Below, piece after piece: positions 4,856 through 57,493 of a DNA stretch of 64,000 bases. The stretch is from contig JACRJX010000008.1 in assembly GCA_016235595.1 (NCBI GenBank), positions 105,092 to 169,091 on the forward strand, in the 5' to 3' direction. Made by a program: the position numbers and the translations under genes. The notes beneath the pieces were generated by a model. The model had not been told where the DNA came from and ran no database searches. It worked only from the letters and a program-made list of their open reading frames with translations. The DNA comes from Verrucomicrobiota bacterium. Its GTDB lineage: Bacteria > Verrucomicrobiota > Verrucomicrobiia > CAIQCK01. How positions within the stretch are numbered: the first letter of the stretch is position 1; every line of letters begins with the position of its first letter.

Positions 4856-5875
4856 ATGAATGTCGCCAATGAGAACCAGCATTGGATTTCCCAGCATCTG
4901 CTGAAGCGATTCAAGACCGAGGGTGCTCCATTCCAGTGTTACCAAGTGGAAACTGGTGAATGGGTGCCGAGAAGTCTCGATCACGCATGCGCAGCGCCAG
5001 GCTACAACCAACTTTTGGTTTCTGGAGAAGCGGACAACACTCTTGAGGCGGCATTTTCCAAAGTCGAATCTGGTTTACGGAATACGCTCAGAGCGCTTGA
5101 GGATGCCGTAAAGAAGCCGCTGACCGAGTTACCTCAAGCTGTGTATGAGAACATGTGTTGGTATTGTTCTTTTTTGAAAGGCATCGCTCCATACTCCAAA
5201 CCCGGTGCCGTGGTCAGTTTCATCATCCAAGTGAACACGGAACTGGAAAGTGGCAGCAATTCATTGCTTCGAGACCTGAACGTTCCTGAAGAGACGATTC
5301 GCGAACTGCGACGGCAATGTGCAATGGGACGCAAGGTAATCATCGAATCCGAGAACCTCCTCCAGTTGCTTTATCGGTTTCAGTTCCGACGCAATTACCG
5401 ATGCGACTACAGCCAGTTTCTTAGCACGAAATGGGCGGTTTCCAGTTCACCCATCGAGATTGCAATGTCAGACGTTGGATTGGTGCCGACGTTTCAGAAA
5501 GATTACAAAGCAAACCATTACCTATTGCCAATCGGTCCGAACCTTTTGCTCGAAGGTATTTTCTTCCACGACCTGAGCAAGAATTCATCGCGGCCTGTTG
5601 TAAGGGGAATGAATCTAACCGATGACGAAGCCGAGTATCGCTTTGAATGTATTTGCGCCTCAGCCATAACAGAGATCATCTGTGCTCGGAAGCTCTCAAA
5701 CATTCCTGAGGCTCGCAGGCGAGCGAATGCGAACGGGATCAGGTTCTGTAAGATCCCCAATCCTAAGAGCATCACTTCGTCGGGCCTCGTGGACGTGGGT
5801 GAGGGTGATTTTCGCTTTCGAATCGTTTCAGTCGAAGAATACGTCAAAGTAGTCCATGCGCACGTGCAGCCTTGA
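4856..5875 (+). CDS. DUF4238-like protein (low-GC insertion)
   Basis: 339-aa ORF. N-terminal 'NQHWISQHLLKRF' resembles the DUF4238 signature (H-Y-V-P-Q-F-Y-L-k-x-F). A hand count of one 60-nt line (5161-5220) gives about 47% GC, against about 60% or more in the flanks. Confidence 0.55.
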   Translation: MNVANENQHWISQHLLKRFKTEGAPFQCYQVETGEWVPRSLDHACAAPGYNQLLVSGEADNTLEAAFSKVESGLRNTLRALEDAVKKPLTELPQAVYENMCWYCSFLKGIAPYSKPGAVVSFIIQVNTELESGSNSLLRDLNVPEETIRELRRQCAMGRKVIIESENLLQLLYRFQFRRNYRCDYSQFLSTKWAVSSSPIEIAMSDVGLVPTFQKDYKANHYLLPIGPNLLLEGIFFHDLSKNSSRPVVRGMNLTDDEAEYRFECICASAITEIICARKLSNIPEARRRANANGIRFCKIPNPKSITSSGLVDVGEGDFRFRIVSVEEYVKVVHAHVQP

Positions 5876-5984
5876 AACAAACCACCCTAGGTCATCCGCC
5901 AAAACAGTCCTCAATCCCTTCGGGATTGAGCTGCAGTCGCTCCTCGATTGAACTTCTCCCGCTTTTGTGTTCGACTTCCATTCC

Positions 5985-6596
5985 ATGAAAACACTTTCTT
6001 TTCTCCTCGCCATGGTCCTAGCCCAAACGACGGCGTTTGCCGATGACGCCAAACCTCTTCTCGTCCAGCCGGGAAAGGTTGTGGCCCAGCCGGACCTCAA
6101 GCAACCGCTCGGCGCTGAGTGGAAGGCGGTGAAGGGAACGTGGGAGCCGAAAGACGGGGAGCTGGTGTGCGCGGAGGTGCCGGCGGACAAACATTCCGCG
6201 GTGCTGTGGCATCTGGTGGGATTGCAAAGCGCGGTGATCGAATGCGAGTTCCAGTTCGATGGCGGCAGGGTGTTCATCATCGGCTGCGATTCGGCCAAGG
6301 GACACGTCGGGCGGGTGACCATCACGCCGAAGCTGGCGCGGATCACGGAAGACGCCTCGGCGGTGAAAGGCAAGACTCCCCCAAAGACCCTCGCCGAGGC
6401 CGCGCTCGACCTGAAACCGGGCCAATGGTATCCGGCGCGGTTGGAGTGGACGGGCGACAAGATGGCGGCGCGTGTGGCTGGCAAGGAAATCCGCGGCGAG
6501 AATGAGAAACTCTCCGTGCCAAAGACTCGCTGGTGGTTTGCTGTCGGCGGCGCGAAGGTCCGCGTGAAGAACATCAAGGCGTGCGAGGGGAAGTAG
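5985..6596 (+). CDS. Secreted concanavalin-A/LamG-like domain protein, paralog 3
   Basis: Start at MKTLSFLLAMVLAQTTAFA (signal peptide) within ORF 5967-6596. Architecture matches paralogs 1 and 2 ('W.AVKG.W', 'GHVGRVTI', 'QWYPARLEWTGDKMAARVAGK'). Confidence 0.55.
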   Translation: MKTLSFLLAMVLAQTTAFADDAKPLLVQPGKVVAQPDLKQPLGAEWKAVKGTWEPKDGELVCAEVPADKHSAVLWHLVGLQSAVIECEFQFDGGRVFIIGCDSAKGHVGRVTITPKLARITEDASAVKGKTPPKTLAEAALDLKPGQWYPARLEWTGDKMAARVAGKEIRGENEKLSVPKTRWWFAVGGAKVRVKNIKACEGK

Positions 6597-6606
6597 GGGG
6601 CGGAGA

Positions 6607-6641
6607 GATCAGAGATCAGAAGTCAGAGGTCAGTGGTCAGA
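6607..6641. repeat. Solo array of five degenerate heptamers (gatcaga gatcaga agtcaga ggtcagt ggtcaga)
   Basis: 7-nt periodicity read directly, starting just after the stop codon at 6596. Confidence 0.8.
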
Positions 6642-6828
6642 GTTGGGGAAGGCTTTGGAAAAACAGGCCGGAATCCTCCGGCAGCGCGAGTCCGTGCGAC
6701 GGGGTAGGGCGAGCCGTCCCTGGCGAGCCGTTTTGCTTCTGAAATGCGTGGGCTGCGGCTCAGCGGGACGCTTCGCCCTGCCATCCTGACCGCCCTCAAA
6801 CCCCGCCTCGGCGGCGCTGATTTTTGTT

Positions 6829-6856
6829 TAAAGTGCCCGCATCCGTTTGCCGATGC
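6829..6856 (+). promoter_or_regulatory. Putative sigma-28 (FliA) promoter for flagellin
   Basis: 'TAAAGTGC' - 12 nt - 'GCCGATGC' compared with the consensus TAAAGTTT-N11-GCCGATAA. About 95 nt upstream of the flagellin ATG. Confidence 0.5.
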
Positions 6857-6950
6857 TCTTGTCGCGGCAAGCCTGTACGGAGGCCGAGTACCAGCAGCAT
6901 GGACGCTGCCGGTTGAAGAAACCATAAACGACGTTAAAGGATGAACGCCC

Positions 6951-8102
6951 ATGGTCATCAACACAAACATACAGGCGCAAACAGGCGCGCGGCTGCTGGG
7001 AGAATCCTCCAGCCGACTCTCACAATCCCTGGCCCGGCTCTCTTCCGGCTCCAAGATCGTTTCGCCGGCCGACGATGCCGCCGGTCTGGCCGTTTCGACA
7101 CGGTTCGACGCCGAGATCAGCCGCACCGGGGCCGCCATCAACAACCTCGGCAACACCCTCTCGTTCTGTCAAACCCAGGATGGATACCTGGGCAAGATCG
7201 GCAAGGCGCTCGACCGCATGAGCGAGCTGGCCATGCTGGCGCAGGATATCACCAAGACCGACTCCGACCGGAGCCTTTACAACCAGGAGTTCCAGACGCT
7301 CAAAAGCTACGTCAACAGCGTCACGACCAAGGATTTCAACGGCGTGTCCCTGTTTGGAGGCGGCGCGCTGAACGTAACCATCGATTCCGACGGCGCCACG
7401 CTCCAGATGGATGGCATCAACGGTGACTATGTGCCAACCGGCCCATATGCGACTTTGTCCACCCTCTTCAGCGCGATCGCTCCCGAAATGACCGGTACAG
7501 TGTGTATCATGCAGGATTTGGGGGGAGGCTCGGCAATGGGCATAGGCGTTGAATCCACGTATGATCTGAACTCGGTTATGGAGAACTTTAATGATCAGTT
7601 CAGCAGCGCAGCATCTATCTCCTATAATTCCAGCACAGGCGAGTTGTCCTTGACGATCCAAGCAGGGAAGAAATTCTATTTTGAAGATCAGGATCTCAAT
7701 CTCCTTTCCTCGTTCATCGGAATCAACGCGTCGGATCTCGACAACTCGGGTGGCAGCACCGACAAAGTCTTGACCACCACACTGACGGTCAGCGGCGGCT
7801 CGATGGACATCAGCACCGCCAGCGGCGCGGTGTCGGCGCTGACCACGGTCAAGTCGGCGATCAGCCAGGTCGCCGCGGATCGTGCGTCGGTCGGCGCGAC
7901 CATCGCGCGTTTGAACTCGACCAGCGAAAGCCTGGGCACCCTCAAGGAGAATCTGGCCGCCGCCAACAGCCGCATCAAGGATGTGGACGTGGCGGAGGAA
8001 AGCACGGCGTTTGCCCGTTACAACATCCTGGTGCAATCCGGCACCGCGATGCTCGCCCAAGCCAACTCGACGCCGAACAGCGTCTTGAAACTGTTGAGTT
8101 AA
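6951..8102 (+). CDS. fliC: Flagellin
   Basis: Conserved N-terminus 'MVINTNIQAQ...LSSGSKIVSPADDAAGLAVS' and C-terminus '...AQANSTPNSVLKLLS', with a variable central region. Confidence 0.95.
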   Translation: MVINTNIQAQTGARLLGESSSRLSQSLARLSSGSKIVSPADDAAGLAVSTRFDAEISRTGAAINNLGNTLSFCQTQDGYLGKIGKALDRMSELAMLAQDITKTDSDRSLYNQEFQTLKSYVNSVTTKDFNGVSLFGGGALNVTIDSDGATLQMDGINGDYVPTGPYATLSTLFSAIAPEMTGTVCIMQDLGGGSAMGIGVESTYDLNSVMENFNDQFSSAASISYNSSTGELSLTIQAGKKFYFEDQDLNLLSSFIGINASDLDNSGGSTDKVLTTTLTVSGGSMDISTASGAVSALTTVKSAISQVAADRASVGATIARLNSTSESLGTLKENLAAANSRIKDVDVAEESTAFARYNILVQSGTAMLAQANSTPNSVLKLLS

Positions 8103-8159
8103 AGCCTTCCGGGAGCGACGCGATGAGAGGCTTTTGCCTCACGCGATGACAACCGCAAA

Positions 8160-8489
8160 GGGCGTGTTGCCCAAATCATGATGGTGTCATGGATGTTCTG
8201 TCGTCCCTACGGGACTCACCGATCTCGAGATCACGGTTCCCGCCAGTACCCGCCAGTAAACTGGCGGGCTATTTTCGAGTGTCCCTACGGGACAACCGTT
8301 GGACCTGGCAACGTCCCGTCTCGGCGGAAATGTTGACGACGCCTTCGGCAACCTCCGCGACAAGCGTCTGCTCCGGCAACGTCCCGTTAGGGACGGTGCG
8401 ACAATAGCCCGGCGTTTCAACGCCGGGAACGCGATGGAAACATGGCAGAGTCCCGTCAGGGACGATTGAATGATTTGGGCAACACGCCC
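8160..8489. mobile_element. MITE-like non-coding element with perfect 20-bp terminal inverted repeats
   Basis: 'gggcgtgttgcccaaatcat' (8160-8179) is the exact reverse complement of 'atgatttgggcaacacgccc' (8470-8489). The interior is packed with short hairpins (gtccctacgggac x2, gtcccgttagggac, gtcccgtcagggac, cccgccagtaaactggcggg, cccggcgtttcaacgccggg). Confidence 0.55.
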
Positions 8490-8731
8490 CAAAGACGCAA
8501 CCCTCTCGCTTGCTGCTGGCAAATGCGGCGGATTCGGCGCATGTTGGTCGCATGGCAAAGAAAGGAAAGAAAACGCTGTTCCATCGTCACGTCTCGGTGT
8601 TTCAACGGGAGGCCGCCTGCCAGACCAATCCGCTGAAAGGTGTGAGCCGCAAGACCGCCCCGACAAAGCCGCCGAAAATCGGTTGATCGGTGCGCCGCCC
8701 GAACATCGCCCGGAGCTGACACGTCCCATTC

Positions 8732-18590: not shown

Positions 18591-18636
18591 AATGTTCCGT
18601 TGAAACATTCGGCATTTGTGCGAAGAACTTTTTGCC

Positions 18637-18708
18637 CGTAACGCGGACACTCCTGTCCGCGGTGTTCTGTTGCCACCCCACGGCGCGGACAGGAGTGTCC
18701 GCGTTACG
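18637..18708. repeat. REP-like inverted hairpin pair (second copy)
   Basis: 'cgtaacgcggacactcctgtccgc' ... 'gcggacaggagtgtccgcgttacg'. The arms are exact reverse complements. It lies between convergent genes. Confidence 0.75.
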
Positions 18709-18770
18709 GTTCGGTTGCGGCTGCGCCGCCTTGGTCCGCAAGCCACCCGTTCGCCTTCCATGAACGGCTG

Positions 18771-19037
18771 TCACTCCAGATAGCCGTGCTTTTTCAGGAA
18801 TGTTTCGAGCTGGCCAGTGTCGAAGTCGCCCAGCACAAGCCCGTCCACTTCGATCACGGGCACCAGTGTCTGCCCGCTGAGGTCAACCGCCTTTTGCCGG
18901 GCAGCGAGATCCTCGCCGACATTGCAGACGGTGTATTTCCAACCACGTTCGTCGAGCCAAGCCTTGGCCTCCTGGCACCAACCGCATATCGGCCGCGTGT
19001 AGAGAATGATTTGCTGCGGCTGTTTGAGAATCTTCAT
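18771..19037 (-). CDS. Glutaredoxin-family protein
   Basis: 88 aa with active site 'CGWC' and a thioredoxin-fold pattern (TLVPVIEVDG). Confidence 0.85.
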   Translation of the reverse strand: MKILKQPQQIILYTRPICGWCQEAKAWLDERGWKYTVCNVGEDLAARQKAVDLSGQTLVPVIEVDGLVLGDFDTGQLETFLKKHGYLE

Positions 19038-19249
19038 GGTGTAACACTCTAATCACACCTTGCCATCGCGCAAGGCTCGGAGACCACATTGCGCCACGTG
19101 TCGGCCCTGACGTATTCGACCCAACTGCTGCATTTGCTGCCACCACCTCATTTGACTGACGTTCATCTGTTCTAGCCGTCGAGTGAACCATGGTTATTTC
19201 CCCATGGTAACAAGTGTTTCTGTTTTTCTTGGCCTCAACTATCTAAGAA

Positions 19250-20218
19250 CTAAACAAGTTTTTGATGAGTCCGAGCGTGTGTGTGTCTTGTAACTAGGAT
19301 GCTAAGCAAAACGGAAAGGGGACTGCTGCGCCTCCGCAGGAATCTGATTTCGCAAGTTATTGCGGTATCTTTACCGAACGGCACCTCGCGTTCCCACTTT
19401 CCTTTTTCGTCTCTGCGCAATTTTGACTCGAGTTCGTCATCTATTCCTAGTTTTGCGACAGGCAAGCCTTCGATAGCCCATGCAAGTTGTCTAAAGTGCT
19501 TTGATAAACTGCTGTGGTCCTTCGGCTTTTTTACTCTCACCTTCTCGTATGGCGTGTCGAAGCGCCCTTTCGAATCTCCCCCCATTATGTGGCAAGTTTT
19601 GATAATCAAAATGCCCTCATTATCTTGAACCAATGCAACGACGCAGTCGAGTCCAGCGAAAGCGCCTGTCATATCCGACAGATGAAGACGGCGAATGAAA
19701 ACCTCTGGGGATACACGGAACCGGCTGCAAATCTCATTCAGCAGGTTGACGTCAAAAAGCTGCTCGTCAACCGCTTTCAAGAGCATTTGTTTAGGAAGAA
19801 GGAGGATTCTTGCAAGGCTGCTACATCCGCCTTCAATAGATTTAAGGTTTGTGTCAAAAACACCCTCTCGCCAGTCACCGTCAGCCGCCTCCAGAAAAAT
19901 GAGGTGAGCCAACTCGTGCGCAACGCTAAACCGCATTCTGTTAGTCAGAGTGAACCACTTTTCACTCCCAGGCTCAAAGTTTGAGCTAGCCTCTGAAGTT
20001 CCCCGGACACCATCGAGGTTTAAGACCACTTCGAACCCGGATCCTGTCTTGGCTAAACCAGCGCTACAGAAAAGCGGCACGAACCTTATGCCCGTTATGT
20101 TGAGCTTTTTCGCGGCCTCACGAAGCGGATCCTCAGGAGATGTCTTGGCAATCGCGGCTGTTAGTTGCTCAGTTTTTTGCCAAGCCGTCGCGCTAATTTT
20201 TTCAATATCATTTTCCAT
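19250..20218 (-). CDS. ImmA/IrrE-family (M78, DUF955) zinc metalloprotease with about 130-aa unknown C-terminal domain
   Basis: HExxH 'HELAH' encoded at 19904-19918. 'RFSVAHELAHLIF', 'ARILLLPKQML' and 'RFRVSPEVFIRRL' match ImmA/IrrE conserved blocks. Low GC. Confidence 0.75.
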   Translation of the reverse strand: MENDIEKISATAWQKTEQLTAAIAKTSPEDPLREAAKKLNITGIRFVPLFCSAGLAKTGSGFEVVLNLDGVRGTSEASSNFEPGSEKWFTLTNRMRFSVAHELAHLIFLEAADGDWREGVFDTNLKSIEGGCSSLARILLLPKQMLLKAVDEQLFDVNLLNEICSRFRVSPEVFIRRLHLSDMTGAFAGLDCVVALVQDNEGILIIKTCHIMGGDSKGRFDTPYEKVRVKKPKDHSSLSKHFRQLAWAIEGLPVAKLGIDDELESKLRRDEKGKWEREVPFGKDTAITCEIRFLRRRSSPLSVLLSILVTRHTHARTHQKLV

Positions 20219-20276
20219 GGATTTATCAGAATCGTTTTTTACTCATACTCGATGCATGTTCCGTAATTCGAAACGA

Positions 20277-23234
20277 TCACGACTGTTCTTCTCCGGGGTC
20301 GCCGTCATCATCCGGCGGCGGTGGTGGATTGCCGCCAACGCTGCATTTCTCGCTCACAACACTTAAAACCTCTTTCCGTCTAACATTGTTCCAAATAAAA
20401 GTCCGATGTTGCTGAAACCGATTATGAAAATCCTGGAAGATTGAACTCCAGCGTTCTCTTGGGACAGGAGAAATCTGATCAGTAATCTCATTTGCACTTT
20501 GCCGGATCTCACGAGTAAAATGCAGTGGTAGCCCGTCCATTTCCTTTTCGAACCAAGGCATTATCTGCTCGCGTGACTCTGGTATCGTAATAACAGCTTG
20601 CGGGCGTGTGGGAGTTTGCTCTTCGGATGGCCACGGAAAACCCGCCCGCCACAACAACTTGAGATCTGCCACTTCCATTCGGTGACCCAAAACTTCTTGG
20701 CTGAGTGCATCTTCTACTCCCTTTTCCTTATTCGCGCTGTCGTAAAGACTAACAAGATCAGCAAACTCACGATCTGACAAATCCGAACCGCTAATGTTCC
20801 CGATAGAGTTTAGGTGCTCGATCAGCTTGTAACCAATTGATCTCGAGTCCTTCAGAGCAAGCGTCCACGCGCTCGATGCGTCTCTGTCAAACTTGTAGCG
20901 CGTATCCCGACAGTTCCTACCATCAGGGTGGTGGACAACGTGTTTAAGCGGACCCTCATGGCTGTAATGGGCAGTGTCTACAGTCGAAAACTCGTGAGGC
21001 CCTGTCGGATCGCTTGGTCTTTGGTGGCGATATATACTTATCCAAAGCGGCAAAAGCGTTTTGAAAAGGTTTTCATCCATTGGAACTCCCAGTTTCTTGC
21101 CTTCCTCCACAGGACCCATACCCTCATGCTCCATTTGCTTTGAAGTAGCTGCCCAATCAATCATCATCACCTTGAACGCATACTTAATTAACTCTTCAGC
21201 ATATCTGAGGCGAATTTGGTGATGCTGACGACTAGTGTTGTGTTTTGAGAAATGCTGTTTCAGCTTTTGCAGAAGGCCCGTATAAAACAGACCATCGCTG
21301 ATGAACACGTATAGCTGCCATAAGCCTTGGTATTTGCTATCCGCATCTTTTATTGAGCTCTCAATTCGAGTTAGAGCTGCCTTCTGCTTATGCATTCCCG
21401 GAGTGTCTACACCCACTTCATCAATGCGGCCTGTATGTTCGTGCATTGCAACGACAAGTGCAGGATCCTTATAGAGTTGCTTGTAGGGTGTCGTCCAAAT
21501 GATCACACGGCTCGGAACAATCTTCATTGCCTCTGCAATAAGAATTGATCCCTCGCCATGTCTTAGAATTTGGTCGACATGATTACATACAGCCAGATCG
21601 TCATCGAACACTCCATCGAGGTATTTCTCGACGCAAGCAGATACGAAGAGAAGAAAAGGACTGTAATAAGTGGAATCCACTAACGCCCCCAATATTCGCA
21701 ACAAGAATTCTGAATCTTCTTTATTTGTTTGTTGTGGTGATACCGTCCGGCCTTGGAACTCAAGCACTTCGCCGGCCCGCTCGTTAGAGACGATCATTAG
21801 AGGGCGAAACACTCTCCGTTCGGAAAGTTTGAGTACAAGTCGCCTTGCTTCACCTAGCTGCATCTTCTTTGCTGCGTCTTCTTCTTGCGTGGAAGCTCGC
21901 TCCACCAAGATGCGGAAAAACCTGTCGTCACCCTGTAAGGCGTGAGTTTCGCTACCGATGCCAACAATATCTTTCAATCCGGGCTTCAGGCCACATCGTT
22001 CAAGCAAAAGCAGTGCCCTCGCTAGCATCGCAACTGCCGATTGGACTACCCGGTGCATCACAGCCTTTTCATGAATCTCTTGGCGTAAATCCAACAGGCG
22101 AAAAATATCATTGATCAGGAAAATTCTTGTAGTCCCACGCTTGGAGTCTCGAAGGTCAATTGCGCATCGGTGGTGGGAAGGTCTGCGTAATACTTCGCCG
22201 TCGGGGGTTTTTAGTGGCTTTGTCGAAGGTCCTTCGGATGGGGGGACCAATACGTAATAGTTCAGCAGGTGCAAGTCTATACGGCGACGCGTTCCCATCC
22301 TGTGAGGATCTCGCTTCAGGTAGTCTAGAAGGTCTGCACTCAGTGTATTCCCAATGATATCGTGCCGGAAAGGTTGGTACCACAGATGGTGAAGAACATG
22401 CCCCCATTCACCAGACACTAGAGACCATTTCTCCAACTTTGGGTTTCCAGCGGAATCAAAGCCTGTGGCAATATTTCGTTCGTGCTCTTTCCCCTCTTCC
22501 TTTGTTTCGTAGAACAATAAATGAAATAGCAAACGTGGTAATAGTTCCCTCACCATCCGTTTTCGTTCATTTGTTTCTAGGCTCCTCAAGAACTTCTTCA
22601 TCTCAATCGTGAAATCCTTGATATGGCTGTACTCAGGTTTTGCACCATCCGCTTTCAGGCGGTTCCAAAACACAACTGAGTATCGAATGAGAACCTGTGC
22701 TAAAACGGAGACGTCGCCATTACAGGTAAGCATATAGAGCAACGGGTGCCTTTCGTAATCATCGTGCTTGTAATACTGCCCGTAGTATGACTGGACCTTG
22801 AACCCCCTGTCCTTCAGATCAACTCCGGGAATGTCGTAGATAACTTTGTGTGTCTTTTTCTCGATATCGTGAGATAGTGGGCCATGCGAAATGTCATGTA
22901 AAAGCGCCCCTAATCTGATCAATATCTTCTCACTTGGTGATATGCCAAAGGTCGCATAGTTCTCGTCCTTTTCACCGGCCCGGAGACGAGCGGTGTTATT
23001 GTAAAGGTTCTCAATGAGTCTGTTAGCATTGTAGCAGGCCCCTATACTGTGAGTGCCTCGAGTATGATTCGCTGTAGAATAAACGAGATGAACAAATCCG
23101 AGTTGCGAAGTGCGAAATAGTCTCTGGAATTCCGGCGTATCAATGACGTCTCGTTCAAGATCGTTCAGATGGATTTGGCCCCACACATCGTCTTGGAACT
23201 TGTGCCTATCGATGAATGGATCGTAGTCACTCAT
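20277..23234 (-). CDS. SAMHD1/EF1143-type HD-domain dNTP triphosphohydrolase-like protein with about 550-aa uncharacterised C-terminal extension
   Basis: 985 aa. 'IDTPEFQRL...QLG', 'HTRGTHSIG', 'LGALLHDISHGPLSHDIE' (HD encoded at 22893-22898) and 'SADLLDYLKRDPHRMG' parallel SAMHD1/COG1078 catalytic blocks. Hand counts of two 60-nt lines give 43-45% GC. Confidence 0.85.
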   Translation of the reverse strand: MSDYDPFIDRHKFQDDVWGQIHLNDLERDVIDTPEFQRLFRTSQLGFVHLVYSTANHTRGTHSIGACYNANRLIENLYNNTARLRAGEKDENYATFGISPSEKILIRLGALLHDISHGPLSHDIEKKTHKVIYDIPGVDLKDRGFKVQSYYGQYYKHDDYERHPLLYMLTCNGDVSVLAQVLIRYSVVFWNRLKADGAKPEYSHIKDFTIEMKKFLRSLETNERKRMVRELLPRLLFHLLFYETKEEGKEHERNIATGFDSAGNPKLEKWSLVSGEWGHVLHHLWYQPFRHDIIGNTLSADLLDYLKRDPHRMGTRRRIDLHLLNYYVLVPPSEGPSTKPLKTPDGEVLRRPSHHRCAIDLRDSKRGTTRIFLINDIFRLLDLRQEIHEKAVMHRVVQSAVAMLARALLLLERCGLKPGLKDIVGIGSETHALQGDDRFFRILVERASTQEEDAAKKMQLGEARRLVLKLSERRVFRPLMIVSNERAGEVLEFQGRTVSPQQTNKEDSEFLLRILGALVDSTYYSPFLLFVSACVEKYLDGVFDDDLAVCNHVDQILRHGEGSILIAEAMKIVPSRVIIWTTPYKQLYKDPALVVAMHEHTGRIDEVGVDTPGMHKQKAALTRIESSIKDADSKYQGLWQLYVFISDGLFYTGLLQKLKQHFSKHNTSRQHHQIRLRYAEELIKYAFKVMMIDWAATSKQMEHEGMGPVEEGKKLGVPMDENLFKTLLPLWISIYRHQRPSDPTGPHEFSTVDTAHYSHEGPLKHVVHHPDGRNCRDTRYKFDRDASSAWTLALKDSRSIGYKLIEHLNSIGNISGSDLSDREFADLVSLYDSANKEKGVEDALSQEVLGHRMEVADLKLLWRAGFPWPSEEQTPTRPQAVITIPESREQIMPWFEKEMDGLPLHFTREIRQSANEITDQISPVPRERWSSIFQDFHNRFQQHRTFIWNNVRRKEVLSVVSEKCSVGGNPPPPPDDDGDPGEEQS

Positions 23235-23365
23235 AAGGATTCCCTTTTAGCCTGCCTGCTGATGGCTCTGTGTGTTTGCACTCCGCAGTGCGGTCATCAT
23301 CCTTTCCAAATCTGACGCTTAGCGTTGTGACAAATGCGGTCTCATGGAGAAAACCAGGAAACATC

Positions 23366-23623
23366 TCATCTCCTCTGGGCCTGAATCATTTCATTCAGTA
23401 TCGCGATTATTGCTGGCAAATCTGCGTTGATATCGAGCAATTGGATGGTACTGGTGCCGGCGATGACATCGCTGAGCTTTTGGCTGGAGACTTCTCCAGG
23501 CGAACCTTGGAGCGGTACGGAGATGCCGTCTATGCGTTTGTTGAGCGCGTTGAAGTTTCTGCGGAGCAGATCGGCTTCAATGTCATCGCCGATCTGGTGA
23601 TGGCTGAGATCGAAGGCAAACAT
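23366..23623 (-). CDS. Hypothetical small acidic protein (85 aa), possibly first gene of the island operon
   Basis: ATG with 'gaaagg' about 10 nt upstream, on the same strand as the HD gene. No recognisable family. A competing ORF lies on the opposite strand. Confidence 0.3.
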   Translation of the reverse strand: MFAFDLSHHQIGDDIEADLLRRNFNALNKRIDGISVPLQGSPGEVSSQKLSDVIAGTSTIQLLDINADLPAIIAILNEMIQAQRR

Positions 23624-23780
23624 AGCTCGGGCCTTTCGTCATGGCCGCTTTCTAGCGCAACGGGCTGGAAAAGCAAGGGAAAAATGGGCAAATTCGTTGC
23701 GCGACGCGTCAGTCCCCGACTATGGAAAAAGAGGGAGGACTTGACCGTAGGACGAGCGGTGGTTTCCGCGAAGCCTCGAA

Positions 23781-32445: not shown

Positions 32446-32515
32446 GTGAATCGTGAATCGAGACTCGTGAATCGTGAATCGTAATTAGTAACTCGTAATT
32501 CGTAACTTGTGATTC
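32446..32515. repeat. Array of 10 degenerate heptamers (gtgaatc / gtaattc / gtaactc type), left arm
   Basis: Read directly. It starts 4 nt after the SBP stop codon and ends just before the four-helix-bundle ATG. Confidence 0.9.
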
Positions 32516-32517
32516 GC

Positions 32518-32967
32518 ATGGAAACGGCAGCGAAAAAATACCGAGGCTTTGAAGAGCTTGATGTGTATCAAGCGGCACGAGAGTTTCGGAAGAAAATGTA
32601 TGATGTGACCAGGCACCTGCCAGACACGGAGAAGTATGGACTTGCCGGCCAGATTCGCCGGGCGGCGGTTTCGCTCACGAACAATATCGCCGAAGGTCAT
32701 GGACGCTTTCATTACCTCGACAACATCAAGTTCGTGCTCGTTTCTCGCGGTTCTCTATGTGAACTGGTAGACGACTTGAACACGTGCGAGGATGAACGTT
32801 ATCTATCGCAGGACGAAGTCGCCGCCTTTAAACATGAAGCGGAGCGTTTGATGCAATTGATGAATGGTTACATCCGATATTTGCGCGACCAAAAGGCCGG
32901 CGCAGCACTTCAGATTCACGAAGACGCCGCGCCCTACGGCTCCGAATGTGCGGAGTTGCCTGAATAA
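32518..32967 (+). CDS. Four-helix-bundle protein (23S rRNA intervening-sequence protein family, TIGR02436-like)
   Basis: 'FEELDVYQAAREF...', 'GLAGQIRRAAVSLTNNIAEGHGR' and 'RGSLCELVDDL' are the family hallmark blocks. Confidence 0.85.
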   Translation: METAAKKYRGFEELDVYQAAREFRKKMYDVTRHLPDTEKYGLAGQIRRAAVSLTNNIAEGHGRFHYLDNIKFVLVSRGSLCELVDDLNTCEDERYLSQDEVAAFKHEAERLMQLMNGYIRYLRDQKAGAALQIHEDAAPYGSECAELPE

Positions 32968-54762: not shown

Positions 54763-56115
54763 ATGAACATTGATGCAGTGCCGCTGTGGCAGCGCGCTAC
54801 GGATTTGTTGCGATCTCGCGTCAGCCCGCCTTTATTTGATCTTTGGTTTGCTCCGCTCAAGGCGCACTCATTGTCGGCAGACGCGTTGACGCTGAATACG
54901 CCGAACGATTTCTACGTGGAGTGGCTGCAGGAGAACTACGCGCCGTTGCTCCGCGATGTGCTCGCAGCCGTCACCGGTCAGACGTTGGCGGTCAAGTTCA
55001 TGCCGCTGCCTGCCGATGCGGCTGTGCCTGCGCAATCCACGCAGCCGCCGGCGCCGGTGCCAGCGCCTGTTCCGGCGCGTGGCGCTTCCGCGCCGACATT
55101 CAACCGCCGCTACACCTTCGACACCTTCGTGGTCGGCCCCAACAACGAAATGGCGCACGCCGCCGCGAAATCGGTGGCGGAATCGCCGGGTCGCGCCTAC
55201 AACCCGTTATTCATTTACGGTGCGACCGGCCTCGGCAAAACACATCTGTTGCAGGCGATCGGTCACTACGTCCTGAGCCATCGCAATCGGATGCGTGTCG
55301 TCTACGTCACCTGCGAGTATTTCCTGAATCATTTCATCGAAGCACTCGGCTCAAAGCAGATGCACAACTTCCGCAAGCATTACCGCAATGCGGACATCCT
55401 GCTGATTGACGACATTCACTCGCTGGCGGGCAAGCAAGGCACGCAGGAGGAGTTCTTCCACACGTTCAACTCTCTCTTCGACGCGCACAAGCAGATCGTG
55501 CTTTCCTGCGACCGGCCTGCGACGGAAATCGCCGGCCTGGAAGAGCGGCTTATCTCCCGCTTCGAGTGGGGCCAGACCGTGGACCTGCAGCCGCCCGACC
55601 TCGAAACGCGCATCGCCATTCTTCGCAAGAAGCAACATCTGCTGGGTTTCCATCTGCCCGACGAGGTGTTGTCATTCCTGGCTGAGAAAATCCGCACTAA
55701 CATCCGCCGGCTCGAAGGCGCGTTGATCCGCGTCGCTTCCTACGGTTCGCTGCCCGGCCGCGAGCTGGACATCCCGGCAGTGGAGAAACTTCTCAATGAT
55801 GTGCTCACAGAAGAAGCGCGGCACGCCCTGACCATCGAGGGCATCCAGAAGTGCGTCGCGACTCATTTCGACATCCGGCTTGCAGACATGACCAGCAAAC
55901 GACGGCCGACCTCCATCGCCTTCCCGCGCATGGTGGCGATGTATCTGTCACGACAACTGACCAACCATTCGCTGGCGCGGATTGGCGAAGCGTTTGGCGG
56001 ACGCGATCACGGCACGGTCATCAACGCGTGCAAGCAGATTACCAAGGCGGTGCAGTCCGATGCCGCCTTGCGCCAAACCGTCGGTTTCCTTCAGCAACAG
56101 TTGAAACGTGAATAA
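54763..56115 (+). CDS. dnaA: Chromosomal replication initiator protein DnaA
   Basis: 'YTFDTFVVGPNN', Walker A 'GATGLGKTHLL', 'IDDIHSLAGK', and domain IV 'RMVAMYLSRQLT..SL..IGEAFGGRDHGTVINA'. Confidence 0.97.
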   Translation: MNIDAVPLWQRATDLLRSRVSPPLFDLWFAPLKAHSLSADALTLNTPNDFYVEWLQENYAPLLRDVLAAVTGQTLAVKFMPLPADAAVPAQSTQPPAPVPAPVPARGASAPTFNRRYTFDTFVVGPNNEMAHAAAKSVAESPGRAYNPLFIYGATGLGKTHLLQAIGHYVLSHRNRMRVVYVTCEYFLNHFIEALGSKQMHNFRKHYRNADILLIDDIHSLAGKQGTQEEFFHTFNSLFDAHKQIVLSCDRPATEIAGLEERLISRFEWGQTVDLQPPDLETRIAILRKKQHLLGFHLPDEVLSFLAEKIRTNIRRLEGALIRVASYGSLPGRELDIPAVEKLLNDVLTEEARHALTIEGIQKCVATHFDIRLADMTSKRRPTSIAFPRMVAMYLSRQLTNHSLARIGEAFGGRDHGTVINACKQITKAVQSDAALRQTVGFLQQQLKRE

Positions 56116-56291
56116 CCCTGCCAATAATCTGTGCCGAGTCTGCCAACAGATGGTTAAGAACTTTGTACCGGACCTAAAAAGTGAACAACCACCAAGTTCC
56201 TACCATGACTCGCTCGGTTTATTCACTGCCGCGCGCCGACGTAACTATCGCTAGCTGACCTTGACAGCGCATTTTGTTTCCAGTATTCACA
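56107..56291. other. Additional DnaA-box-like sites in the dnaA-dnaN spacer
   Basis: 'cGTGAATAA' 56107-56115 (overlaps the dnaA stop), 'TTATTCACt' 56219-56227 and 'gTATTCACA' 56283-56291. Confidence 0.4.
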
Positions 56292-56326
56292 CCCTCTACT
56301 ACGACGACTCTTCTTAAGGTTTATAT

Positions 56327-57493
56327 ATGAAAATAACAGTCAGCAAAGACCAGATGCTAGAGGCGCTTCAACAAGTGCAAACAGTCGTCAGCACTCGCAC
56401 CACACTTCCCATCCTTTCCAATGTCCTGCTCCGCGCCACAGGCGACACATTGGAACTGACCACCACCGATCTGGATGTCGGAATCCAACGCAAGATCAGT
56501 GCCGATGTTGCAAAGCCGGGAGCCACCAGTCTGCCAGCGCGCCGATTGTTTGGAATTTTCAGGGAATTGCCTGCAGGAGAAGCCGAAATCGAGGTCGATG
56601 AAAAGAACATCGCATCCATACGTTGCGGGTCGTCGTTCTTCAAGATCATGGGATTGCCAGCAGAGGAGTTCCCCCCATTGCCGAAGTTCGATGGAGGCAA
56701 ACATTTCAAGATTGCACAAACAAACCTGCGCGACATGTTCCGCAAAACCTCGTACGCGATCTCCAATGATGAGACGCGCTATGTGTTAAACGGCGCATTC
56801 TTGCAGTTTAAGGCCGATAAACTGACGATGGTGGCCACAGATGGTCGTCGGTTGGCATTAGCGGAACAAGACTTGGAGTTTCCAAAAGCCAACGAGGTTG
56901 AGGGCATTCTGCCAACAAAGGCCGTCAATGAGCTGATGCATCTTTTGGGCGACAAGGGCGAAGTTCAGGCGATCGTGACGGAAAACCAGATGGCGTTTGA
57001 GATGCAGGTTTCAGCAGCACCAGTGACCGGGGCACAACCAGAAAAGGGGAAGGAAGAAAAGGCGAAGAGTGACAGCCCGAACCTGATGATCGTGTCGAAA
57101 TTGATCGAGGGGAATTATCCGAATTATCGCCAGGTGATTCCCAGTGAGTGCAAAGAACGTGTCACGCTCGAACGCGAGAGCTTGCTGACAGCGCTTCGTC
57201 GGGCCTCTCTGCTCTGCACAGAGAAGTCCAACTCGGTCAAACTCCAGTTCTCCAAGAATAACCTCGCAGTCATAGCGAAGAGTCCTGATGTGGGCGAGGC
57301 ACGCGAATCCGTGACGATCAACTACAAGGGCAAGGAAATCGCGGTCGCGTTCAACCCCGAATACATGATGGATCCTCTGCGCAACCTCGACAGCGATGAG
57401 GTCCACTTGGAGTTGATCGACGAGCTGTCACCCGGGGTCATCAAGGTGAACGCCCCGTTCCTCTACGTCCTGATGCCGATGCGGATGAGTTGA
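56327..57493 (+). CDS. dnaN: DNA polymerase III beta subunit (sliding clamp)
   Basis: 388 aa, N-terminal 'MKITVSKDQMLEAL..VQ.VV..RTTLPILSNVLL'. Position directly after dnaA. Confidence 0.95.
   Translation: MKITVSKDQMLEALQQVQTVVSTRTTLPILSNVLLRATGDTLELTTTDLDVGIQRKISADVAKPGATSLPARRLFGIFRELPAGEAEIEVDEKNIASIRCGSSFFKIMGLPAEEFPPLPKFDGGKHFKIAQTNLRDMFRKTSYAISNDETRYVLNGAFLQFKADKLTMVATDGRRLALAEQDLEFPKANEVEGILPTKAVNELMHLLGDKGEVQAIVTENQMAFEMQVSAAPVTGAQPEKGKEEKAKSDSPNLMIVSKLIEGNYPNYRQVIPSECKERVTLERESLLTALRRASLLCTEKSNSVKLQFSKNNLAVIAKSPDVGEARESVTINYKGKEIAVAFNPEYMMDPLRNLDSDEVHLELIDELSPGVIKVNAPFLYVLMPMRMS

Follow-up and report, generated by a model that had tools for sequence, protein, structure and literature searches.

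The DNA analysed here is a stretch of 64,000 nucleotides (nt) of contig JACRJX010000008.1 from a Verrucomicrobiota bacterium, referred to as the window throughout. Between an efflux operon of the HlyD/MacB type and a gene for a glutaredoxin it contains a low-GC island carrying a small pair of co-oriented genes of ~4 kb, which is the subject of this study. The first gene encodes a 985-residue protein with a SAMHD1-like HD core and the second a 322-residue metalloprotease of the ImmA/IrrE (M78) family, termed here the HD protein and the M78 partner, respectively. The open reading frames (ORFs) of 985, 322 and 85 amino acids that a preliminary description had reported for this region, including the 58-nt gap between the two large ones, were all recovered at the positions listed below, and the motifs it had named (IDTPEFQRL, H..HS.G as HTRGTHSIG, LLHDISHGPLSH, DLLDYLKRD and HELAH) were all present in the translations, with the codons of the HD dyad and of HELAH correctly placed at 22893–22898 and 19904–19918. 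The locus is organised as follows, in window coordinates:

19250–20218, minus strand: gene of the M78 partner, 322 amino acids (ORF and translation)
19283–19651, minus strand: C-terminal β-rich GAF/PAS-like putative sensor domain of the M78 partner, ~residues 190–312 (model and Foldseek)
19679–19966, minus strand: M78 protease domain, ~residues 85–180, with HELAH at 19904–19918 and the downstream E129/C132 motif
20219–20276, minus strand: intergenic spacer between the HD and M78 genes, 58 nt
20277–23234, minus strand: gene of the HD protein, the candidate effector, 985 amino acids (ORF and translation)
20280–21284, minus strand: all-helical C-terminal extension, residues 651–985 (secondary structure of the model)
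21285–23234, minus strand: SAMHD1-type catalytic core (HD lobe and C-terminal lobe), residues 1 to ~650 (Foldseek and profile searches with hidden Markov models, HMMs)
22893–22898, minus strand: codons of the HD dyad H113 and D114 (translation; both invariant in the homologue alignment)
23227–23364, minus strand: small ORF of 45 amino acids, called by one pipeline, non-conserved
23235–23780, minus strand: island DNA upstream of the pair, poorly coding or non-coding, holding the 85- and 45-residue ORFs
23366–23623, minus strand: small ORF of 85 amino acids, non-conserved

The GC content of the island (~19000–23500) was 0.45–0.52 in 500-nt windows compared with 0.60–0.66 on either side, and when the entire 64 kb (mean 0.603, standard deviation 0.051) was read in 1-kb windows, no other stretch below 0.53 was as long. 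As the GC content at third codon positions (GC3) was 0.49 for the HD gene and 0.51 for the M78 gene, hence ~0.50 against 0.72–0.89 for ten neighbouring genes, we read the block as foreign DNA placed between core genes and the pair as horizontally acquired. The compositional anomaly proposed earlier thus persists in a windowed calculation of GC and GC3. Scans of the borders likewise agreed with the earlier observation that no mobility marker delimits the island: we found no tRNA at its borders, no integrase in the window flanks, and no flanking direct or inverted repeats beyond chance-level 12–20-mers. A promoter presumably lies within the upstream island DNA (23235–23780); scanning this upstream region for promoters and terminators yielded counts not above those of shuffled sequence. 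The 85- and 45-residue ORFs were considered as a third component and rejected, having no counterpart in 23 related loci, so that the previously reported 85-residue ORF exists as such and does not belong to the conserved unit.

The 985-residue protein was 100% identical to P0001, named 'MAG: HD domain-containing protein [Verrucomicrobia bacterium]', and matched the Pfam HD model at a borderline 22.3 bits (cutoff 22). Searching the PDB with the single sequence (phmmer) returned SAMHD1 and EF1143 at E ~1e-11, and a search with the family profile (HMM) returned SAMHD1-type entries at E 2.5e-21. In these searches three separate blocks aligned to SAMHD1/EF1143, namely the region of the HD motif, the block DxxDYxxRD and the helix with RxxxHxKA. 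A structure predicted by AlphaFold from 29 homologues had a predicted local distance difference test score (pLDDT) of 82 and a predicted template-modelling score (pTM) of 0.79. The top 50 Foldseek matches of this model in the PDB were all SAMHD1-type cores, 49 of them SAMHD1 entries (human, C. elegans and R. irregularis), at E ~4e-10 over 520–720 aligned columns (~680) with target-normalised template-modelling (TM) scores of 0.41–0.55. The root-mean-square deviation from SAMHD1 was high, ~11 Å, because of insertions, the largest of which comprises ~170 family-specific residues between H122 and D301. Residues ~10–650 are thus predicted to form a complete SAMHD1-type core with insertions.

Within the 29 homologues R59, H62, H113, D114, H117, H122, E125, D301, Y305, D309, R384 and H388 are invariant or near-invariant. 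The metal ligands H62, H113, D114 and D301 are strictly invariant and align to the SAMHD1 segments HNRFEHSLG, HDLGHGPFSH and DKWDY. The HxxE dyad H122/E125 (SHDIE) is invariant as well, corresponding to the His-x-x-Glu/Asp catalytic dyad described for dGTPases (PMC13519002, PMC12265719). With all metal and catalytic residues conserved and the PDB searches in agreement, the SAMHD1/EF1143 catalytic blocks recognised in the preliminary description are corroborated; in its term 'HD dNTPase fusion' the word fusion is imprecise, as the protein consists of a core with an insertion and a helical tail of no known family. Judged from these residues, triphosphohydrolase chemistry of the HD protein appears well supported, and deoxynucleoside triphosphates (dNTPs) as its substrate less so. 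The helical extension holds the invariant motif H759...C775-R-D777-x-R-Y780-K, and its last ~110–130 residues occur in a long subclass only. A hidden helix-turn-helix (HTH) or other known domain in the tail was rejected, since neither Pfam, searched with 11 tails, nor the PDB, searched with a profile, gave more than noise (best E 0.024, La protein).

The 322-residue protein was 100% identical to P0121, named 'ImmA/IrrE family metallo-endopeptidase'. Its earlier assignment to the ImmA/IrrE M78 proteases was confirmed by a match to Pfam Peptidase_M78 (PF06114; COG2856) of 36.9 bits, above the cutoff of 22, and by the conserved HExxH...E site: H101, E102, E129, C132 and P142 are invariant in 21 partners and H105 is found in 20 of these 21. 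In the predicted structure, the protease domain is followed by strands within residues 192–212 and 272–312, with residues 214–247 disordered. Full-length Foldseek matches were the PprI/IrrE structures from Deinococcus (8sln, 8slm, 3dte and 3dti; E 6e-9 to 5e-7), including with 8sln the single-stranded DNA (ssDNA)-bound form of PprI, and the C-terminal half additionally matched the IrrE C-terminal domain as well as PAS/LOV domains. We therefore assign, with moderate confidence and on the basis of this model, the full IrrE/PprI architecture of an M78 protease and a GAF/PAS-like putative sensor domain. Pfam and PDB profile searches detected no HTH domain in either the HD protein or the M78 partner. 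Among the PADLOC models, capP was the best match of the partner (38.9 bits), along with 15 RmrA models at 11.6–32.5 bits; the capP and RmrA matches alike covered the protease domain only.

We analysed the distribution of the family in a genome scan with one genome per species (185,579 species), which yielded 15 HD-family loci in Planctomycetota, Acidobacteriota, Gemmatimonadota, Verrucomicrobiota and one doubtful bin. Among 1.84 billion cluster representatives, 473 belonged to the HD family at E<=1e-30. Full-length members comprise ~820–1000 amino acids and are 37–48% identical to the copy in the window. A gene for a 280–400-residue HExxH protein related to the M78 protein of the window lay directly downstream on the same strand in each of the 14 genome loci that bear genes, and an M78 gene also followed the HD gene in 11 of 11 separately annotated metagenome contexts. 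The preliminary description had asked whether homologues might be single-copy housekeeping genes or be unlinked from M78 proteases. Neither is the case, given 15 loci among 185,579 species and four phyla, one of them decayed, and an M78 gene immediately downstream of every intact homologue on the same strand. In the relatives the two genes lie at most 110 nt apart or overlap by as much as 145 nt (longest ORFs), suggesting translational coupling.

The two proteins also diverge together: over 17 loci the pairwise identities of HD and M78 proteins correlate with a Mantel r of 0.82, a value reached in 0 of 5000 permutations. The length of the HD tail also changes along with the subclass of the M78 protein, an association that is confounded by comprising only two clades. 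The partner M78 family is distinct, its members scoring at least 182 bits and generic M78 proteins at most 51 bits. As a negative control we reused generic SAMHD1-like loci that a too-general sister-family metagenome pattern had collected, and no related M78 gene was present near ~75 of these generic SAMHD1-like HD loci.

Sister HD proteins, which share only the first ~475 profile positions with the HD family, also occur next to M78 genes. Three of these loci keep the order of HD followed by M78 just downstream, and in L070 a small M78 gene of 171 amino acids lies upstream of the sister HD gene instead:

L028, 4959–8365: sister HD gene with adjacent M78 gene
L029, 460–3218: sister HD gene with adjacent M78 gene
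L030, 120–2371: sister HD gene with adjacent M78 gene
L070, 246–2489: sister HD gene with adjacent M78 gene

A further sister locus, L031 (contig Ga0182027_10007652), contains at 4926–8663 a single ORF of 1245 amino acids, in which hhalign detected the HD core (99.7%, E 2e-25) and a C-terminal M78 domain (97.5%, E 6e-12). By its sequence this ORF looks like a natural HD–M78 fusion, which, if real, would be classic evidence for direct functional coupling. Together, these loci suggest a wider HD–M78 superfamily. Relatives of 1027 amino acids (P0156, P0159 and others) were rejected as further fusions, as they lack an M78 part. The family was absent from plasmids and phages (PLSDB, INPHARED), where only the N-terminal HD motif was matched at 12–17% coverage, and none of the viral contigs of IMG/VR matched the HD family.

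Two observations concern the integrity of the genes. The 15th genome locus, L015 (9920–10785; Verrucomicrobiota), is a decayed remnant, in which an HD fragment (residues ~167–326) abuts a fragment of the M78 C-terminus. In five loci from metagenome-assembled genomes (L002, L004, L011, L012 and L013) the HD gene is split into 2–3 consecutive ORFs, reflecting either long-read frameshift errors or genuine pseudogenisation.

Defence or mobile-element genes were located within 10 kb in 10 of 12 annotated neighbourhoods, so that a check of the defence-island setting proposed earlier came out in its favour for most annotated relatives. The neighbourhoods include the following genes:

bacterial gasdermin with CHAT protease, an HTH–M78 gene and HATPase_c_3
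a PIN toxin–antitoxin pair
GmrSD, FRG and an N6/N4 methyltransferase
integrases with a resolvase, and a UvrD/OLD-like pair
a transposase
Abi_alpha, ParDE and a Pol-beta nucleotidyltransferase
Bub-type ubiquitin-like genes, E2-CBASS, patatin and ArdC
a Schlafen-like ATPase with Bub genes
a KAP NTPase matching PifA/QatA, NERD and toxin–antitoxin genes

A conserved HTH or XRE gene beside the pair was found neither in the window nor in ~25 related loci. On two unrelated contigs (L017, 6190–9821; L021, 3474–7204) another two-gene pair lies directly upstream of HD–M78, in opposite orientations. It encodes a protein of 720–810 amino acids without Pfam match and an AAA_22 ATPase of 440–490 amino acids, neither of them matched in PADLOC, and may travel along as a system of its own.

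Comparison with named systems places the components among known kinds, a SAMHD1/dGTPase-type effector and an ImmA/IrrE-type protease regulator, and makes their pairing a well-supported candidate defence module. dNTPases are established anti-phage effectors, one of them with a dedicated regulator partner (PMC12265719). This system, Clover (CloA dNTPase and CloB nucleotidyltransferase; PMC12265719), likewise consists of two genes for a SAMHD1-like dNTPase effector and a dedicated regulatory partner, which balances toxicity against defence (PMC12265719). In Clover, however, CloB is a nucleotidyltransferase making an inhibitory nucleotide, whereas the HD protein is paired with a zinc protease that carries a GAF/PAS-like domain, and no CloB-like gene was found in the HD–M78 loci, where the M78 protease is the only conserved partner. 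PADLOC 2.0.0 gave no named-system match for either protein beyond weak domain-level ones and has no model for the HD–M78 pair, in line with the earlier remark that the pairing is not a named defence system. Full-text literature searches returned no description of an HD/SAMHD1–M78 pair, with the qualification that it may have been named recently and that the current DefenseFinder lay outside the comparison. The pair falls outside the anti-phage dGTPases by their curated model scores, outside Clover for want of a nucleotidyltransferase partner, outside CapP–CapH/IrrE–DdrO for want of a repressor and outside RosmerTA for want of an HTH in the M78 protein, and is probably an undescribed immune module.

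We consider it quite probable that the pair is a conflict or defence module with the HD protein as nucleotide-degrading effector. On balance, we favour as the overall explanation a horizontally acquired two-gene module of the anti-phage type, whose sensor protease controls a nucleotide-depleting effector post-translationally. In this scheme the first gene would provide the effector, a large SAMHD1-clade HD triphosphohydrolase, and the second would supply sensor and regulator in one, a zinc protease of the M78 type that resembles IrrE, PprI and CapP and carries a GAF/PAS-like sensor domain; translational coupling would keep it at a fixed ratio to the effector. The protease would sense an infection cue, which by analogy with PprI and CapP could be ssDNA, and would cut the helical C-terminal extension or another exposed segment of the HD protein; ssDNA is the activator of both these proteases (PMC10904395; 10.1101/2022.04.27.489752). 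In the simplest form, the family-specific extension would lose an inhibitory portion through the cut, which would turn the enzyme on, and the active HD enzyme would then hydrolyse (d)NTPs and starve replication. The HD protein is proposed as the substrate because no XRE repressor is linked and it represents the only conserved candidate partner. The parts of this scheme differ in strength. Direct action of the protease on the HD protein is a genuine possibility that falls short of probable, whereas an activating rather than restraining effect of cleavage is tentative, and the specific version of zymogen-style activation, in which M78 cuts off the C-terminal extension upon an infection cue such as ssDNA, is just as speculative. 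The dNTPase activity, the phage-defence role, the cue, the HD protein as substrate and the direction of control are all points that we infer.

Several observations weigh against this explanation. The module is known from sequence and predicted structures alone, and the HD family has no member from a cultured, tractable organism. To our knowledge, no characterised M78/IrrE-family protease cleaves anything but an XRE repressor, leaving an HD substrate without precedent. The fusion is represented by one metagenome contig, where faulty assembly or a frameshift could have created it; one partner carries HEIAQ in place of HExxH, and the confidence of the M78 model is moderate (pLDDT 71). The copy in the window and that of L020 are solitary insertions surrounded by housekeeping genes, and no further defence gene lies in their vicinity. 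As to the substrate, the positions of SAMHD1 Tyr374 and Gln375, which contact the substrate sugar and base, are occupied by Val392 and Met393, with a family consensus of Val and a variable residue; therefore the substrate is not certain and may not be dNTPs. The curated dGTPase models are missed widely, with 15.8 against a cutoff of 152.35 for TIGR01353 and 13.3 against 383 for NF003701.

The serious rival is an antitoxin polarity as in RosmerTA (RmrT and RmrA; PMC10440598), which we judge unlikely overall. Here, the HD protein would be a constitutively active toxin that the M78 partner restrains as antitoxin, by binding or continuous cleavage, and infection or loss of the element would deplete or inactivate M78 and free the toxin, reversing the direction of control relative to our favoured explanation. 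RosmerTA likewise joins a 'toxin' gene to an ImmA-type protease gene and shows defence-island association; it combines diverse toxins with an ImmA-protease antitoxin in variable order, toxin first in 58% (PMC10440598). The translational coupling would suit stoichiometric neutralisation, Clover offers the example of a dNTPase restrained by its partner (PMC12265719), and the neighbourhoods are rich in toxin–antitoxin genes. However, although the partner does match the 15 RmrA models over its M78 domain, these matches are weak (12–32 bits) and confined to profile positions ~187–298, and the N-terminal HTH typical of RmrA is missing. An IrrE-type sensor domain is present instead, which suggests signal-dependent activation. 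A fusion of HD and M78 would moreover be awkward for an antitoxin whose loss must release the toxin. Neither a text search of the NetFlax paper nor PADLOC with its models brought up an HD/SAMHD1-type toxin.

A second alternative concerns the chemistry: the HD protein may not be a dNTP triphosphohydrolase and may act on ribonucleotides, alarmones, signalling nucleotides or nucleic acid, in which case a defence pair would still be possible. The protein shares with the SAMHD1/EF1143 dNTPases the core fold, the H...HD...D metal site and the HxxE/D dyad, and by analogy with SAMHD1 and dGTPases the likely outcome would be the same, depletion of the nucleotide pool that blocks viral replication. Compared with these enzymes, it is about twice the size, with the ~170-residue insertion in its core and a helical tail of 200–335 residues across the family. 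The substrate-contacting Tyr/Gln of SAMHD1 is Val/Met, and scores lie far under the curated dGTPase cutoffs, by which the protein also differs from the stand-alone bacterial anti-phage dGTPases (Tal et al. 2022, as cited in PMC12265719; PMC13519002). The PADLOC dGTPase model reached 19.9 bits over residues 28–135 only. Known dGTPases are single genes, whereas the HD protein is obligatorily paired with a protease. Against a different chemistry stand a match that covers the whole SAMHD1 catalytic core and not the HD motif alone, the invariance of the phosphate- and metal-binding residues and of the HxxE dyad, and the top structural matches, which are all dNTPases, so that we regard this alternative as doubtful.

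Less likely still are two further roles. The M78 partner could be a transcriptional switch of the CapP/IrrE type that cleaves an unlinked XRE-type repressor or itself regulates, leaving the HD protein untouched: the operon would be induced after DNA damage or infection, and HD activity set only by expression level and its own allostery. All characterised relatives (IrrE–DdrO, ImmA–ImmR and CapP–CapH) act in this way (PMC10904395, PMC12828697, 10.1101/2022.04.27.489752), and the partner shares with IrrE/PprI, ImmA and CapP the HExxH...E site, the IrrE fold and the C-terminal GAF-like domain, as well as, likely by this analogy, activation by a signal. capP is its best PADLOC match, as noted above, and PrpR, an M78-like/GAF-like transcription regulator, is among its fold matches. 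Unlike in those switches, where the cleaved XRE repressor is an adjacent one, no XRE repressor is linked here, with a conserved adjoining HTH gene in none of ~25 loci and an HTH domain in neither protein. CapP–CapH is encoded upstream of the operon it controls, and such regulators are described as lying upstream of immune operons (bioRxiv 2026.02.02.703251), whereas the M78 gene comes second here, frequently overlapping the gene of the large enzyme, with which M78 co-diverges and was once found fused, pointing to a direct protein–protein relationship. We hence consider a purely transcriptional role very unlikely. A non-antiviral module for DNA-damage or desiccation stress, with an IrrE-like sensor tuning dNTP pools via a SAMHD1-like enzyme as a regulator of the housekeeping type that is mobile by chance, would fit the role of IrrE/PprI as radiation- and desiccation-response protease, the cell-cycle regulation by bacterial Dgt enzymes (PMC12186491), the copies among core genes (window, L020) and the soil and sediment hosts, but is highly improbable in view of the rare and patchy distribution over four phyla, the foreign codon usage, the decayed remnant and the 10 of 12 contexts with defence or mobile-element genes.

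Protease-controlled nucleotide depletion, the explanation we favour, would bear on how toxic dNTPases stay off until infection. Animals and bacteria both counter viruses by depleting nucleotides with SAMHD1-like enzymes, and two ways of keeping these enzymes in check are known: allostery by nucleotides, as in SAMHD1 and dGTPases, and inhibition by a signalling nucleotide, as in Clover. An IrrE-type sensor protease that is strictly linked to its enzyme, co-evolves with it and is occasionally fused to it suggests proteolytic control as a third. If true, this would widen the substrate range of ImmA/IrrE proteases beyond repressors, make the partner the first member of this family to activate an immune effector post-translationally, in the manner of a zymogen, and not as an anti-repressor, and establish a new protease-based licensing of nucleotide depletion across an unnoticed HD–M78 superfamily with fused forms. 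The relatives come from distant soil and water bacteria, and the module is confined to the poorly studied Planctomycetota, Acidobacteriota, Verrucomicrobiota and Gemmatimonadota, whose defence repertoires are largely uncharted.

Outside the island, the window contains a second gene of low GC3 (0.55) at 4856–5875 on the plus strand, encoding a 339-residue DUF4238 protein (Pfam, 38 bits) without PADLOC match, which was probably also acquired horizontally. A 152-residue gene at 32509–32967 (plus strand; GC3 0.57) encodes a 23S_rRNA_IVP four-helix-bundle protein (102 bits) and lies between core genes. The glutaredoxin gene is separated from a rhodanese-like ORF by DNA that holds, at 18636–18709, a perfect inverted repeat of 26 nt with a 22-nt spacer, which could represent a repeat element or serve as a terminator. 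Finally, dnaA and dnaN are located at 54763–57493 on the plus strand, ~31 kb from the HD–M78 island, and the window therefore adjoins the chromosomal replication origin.

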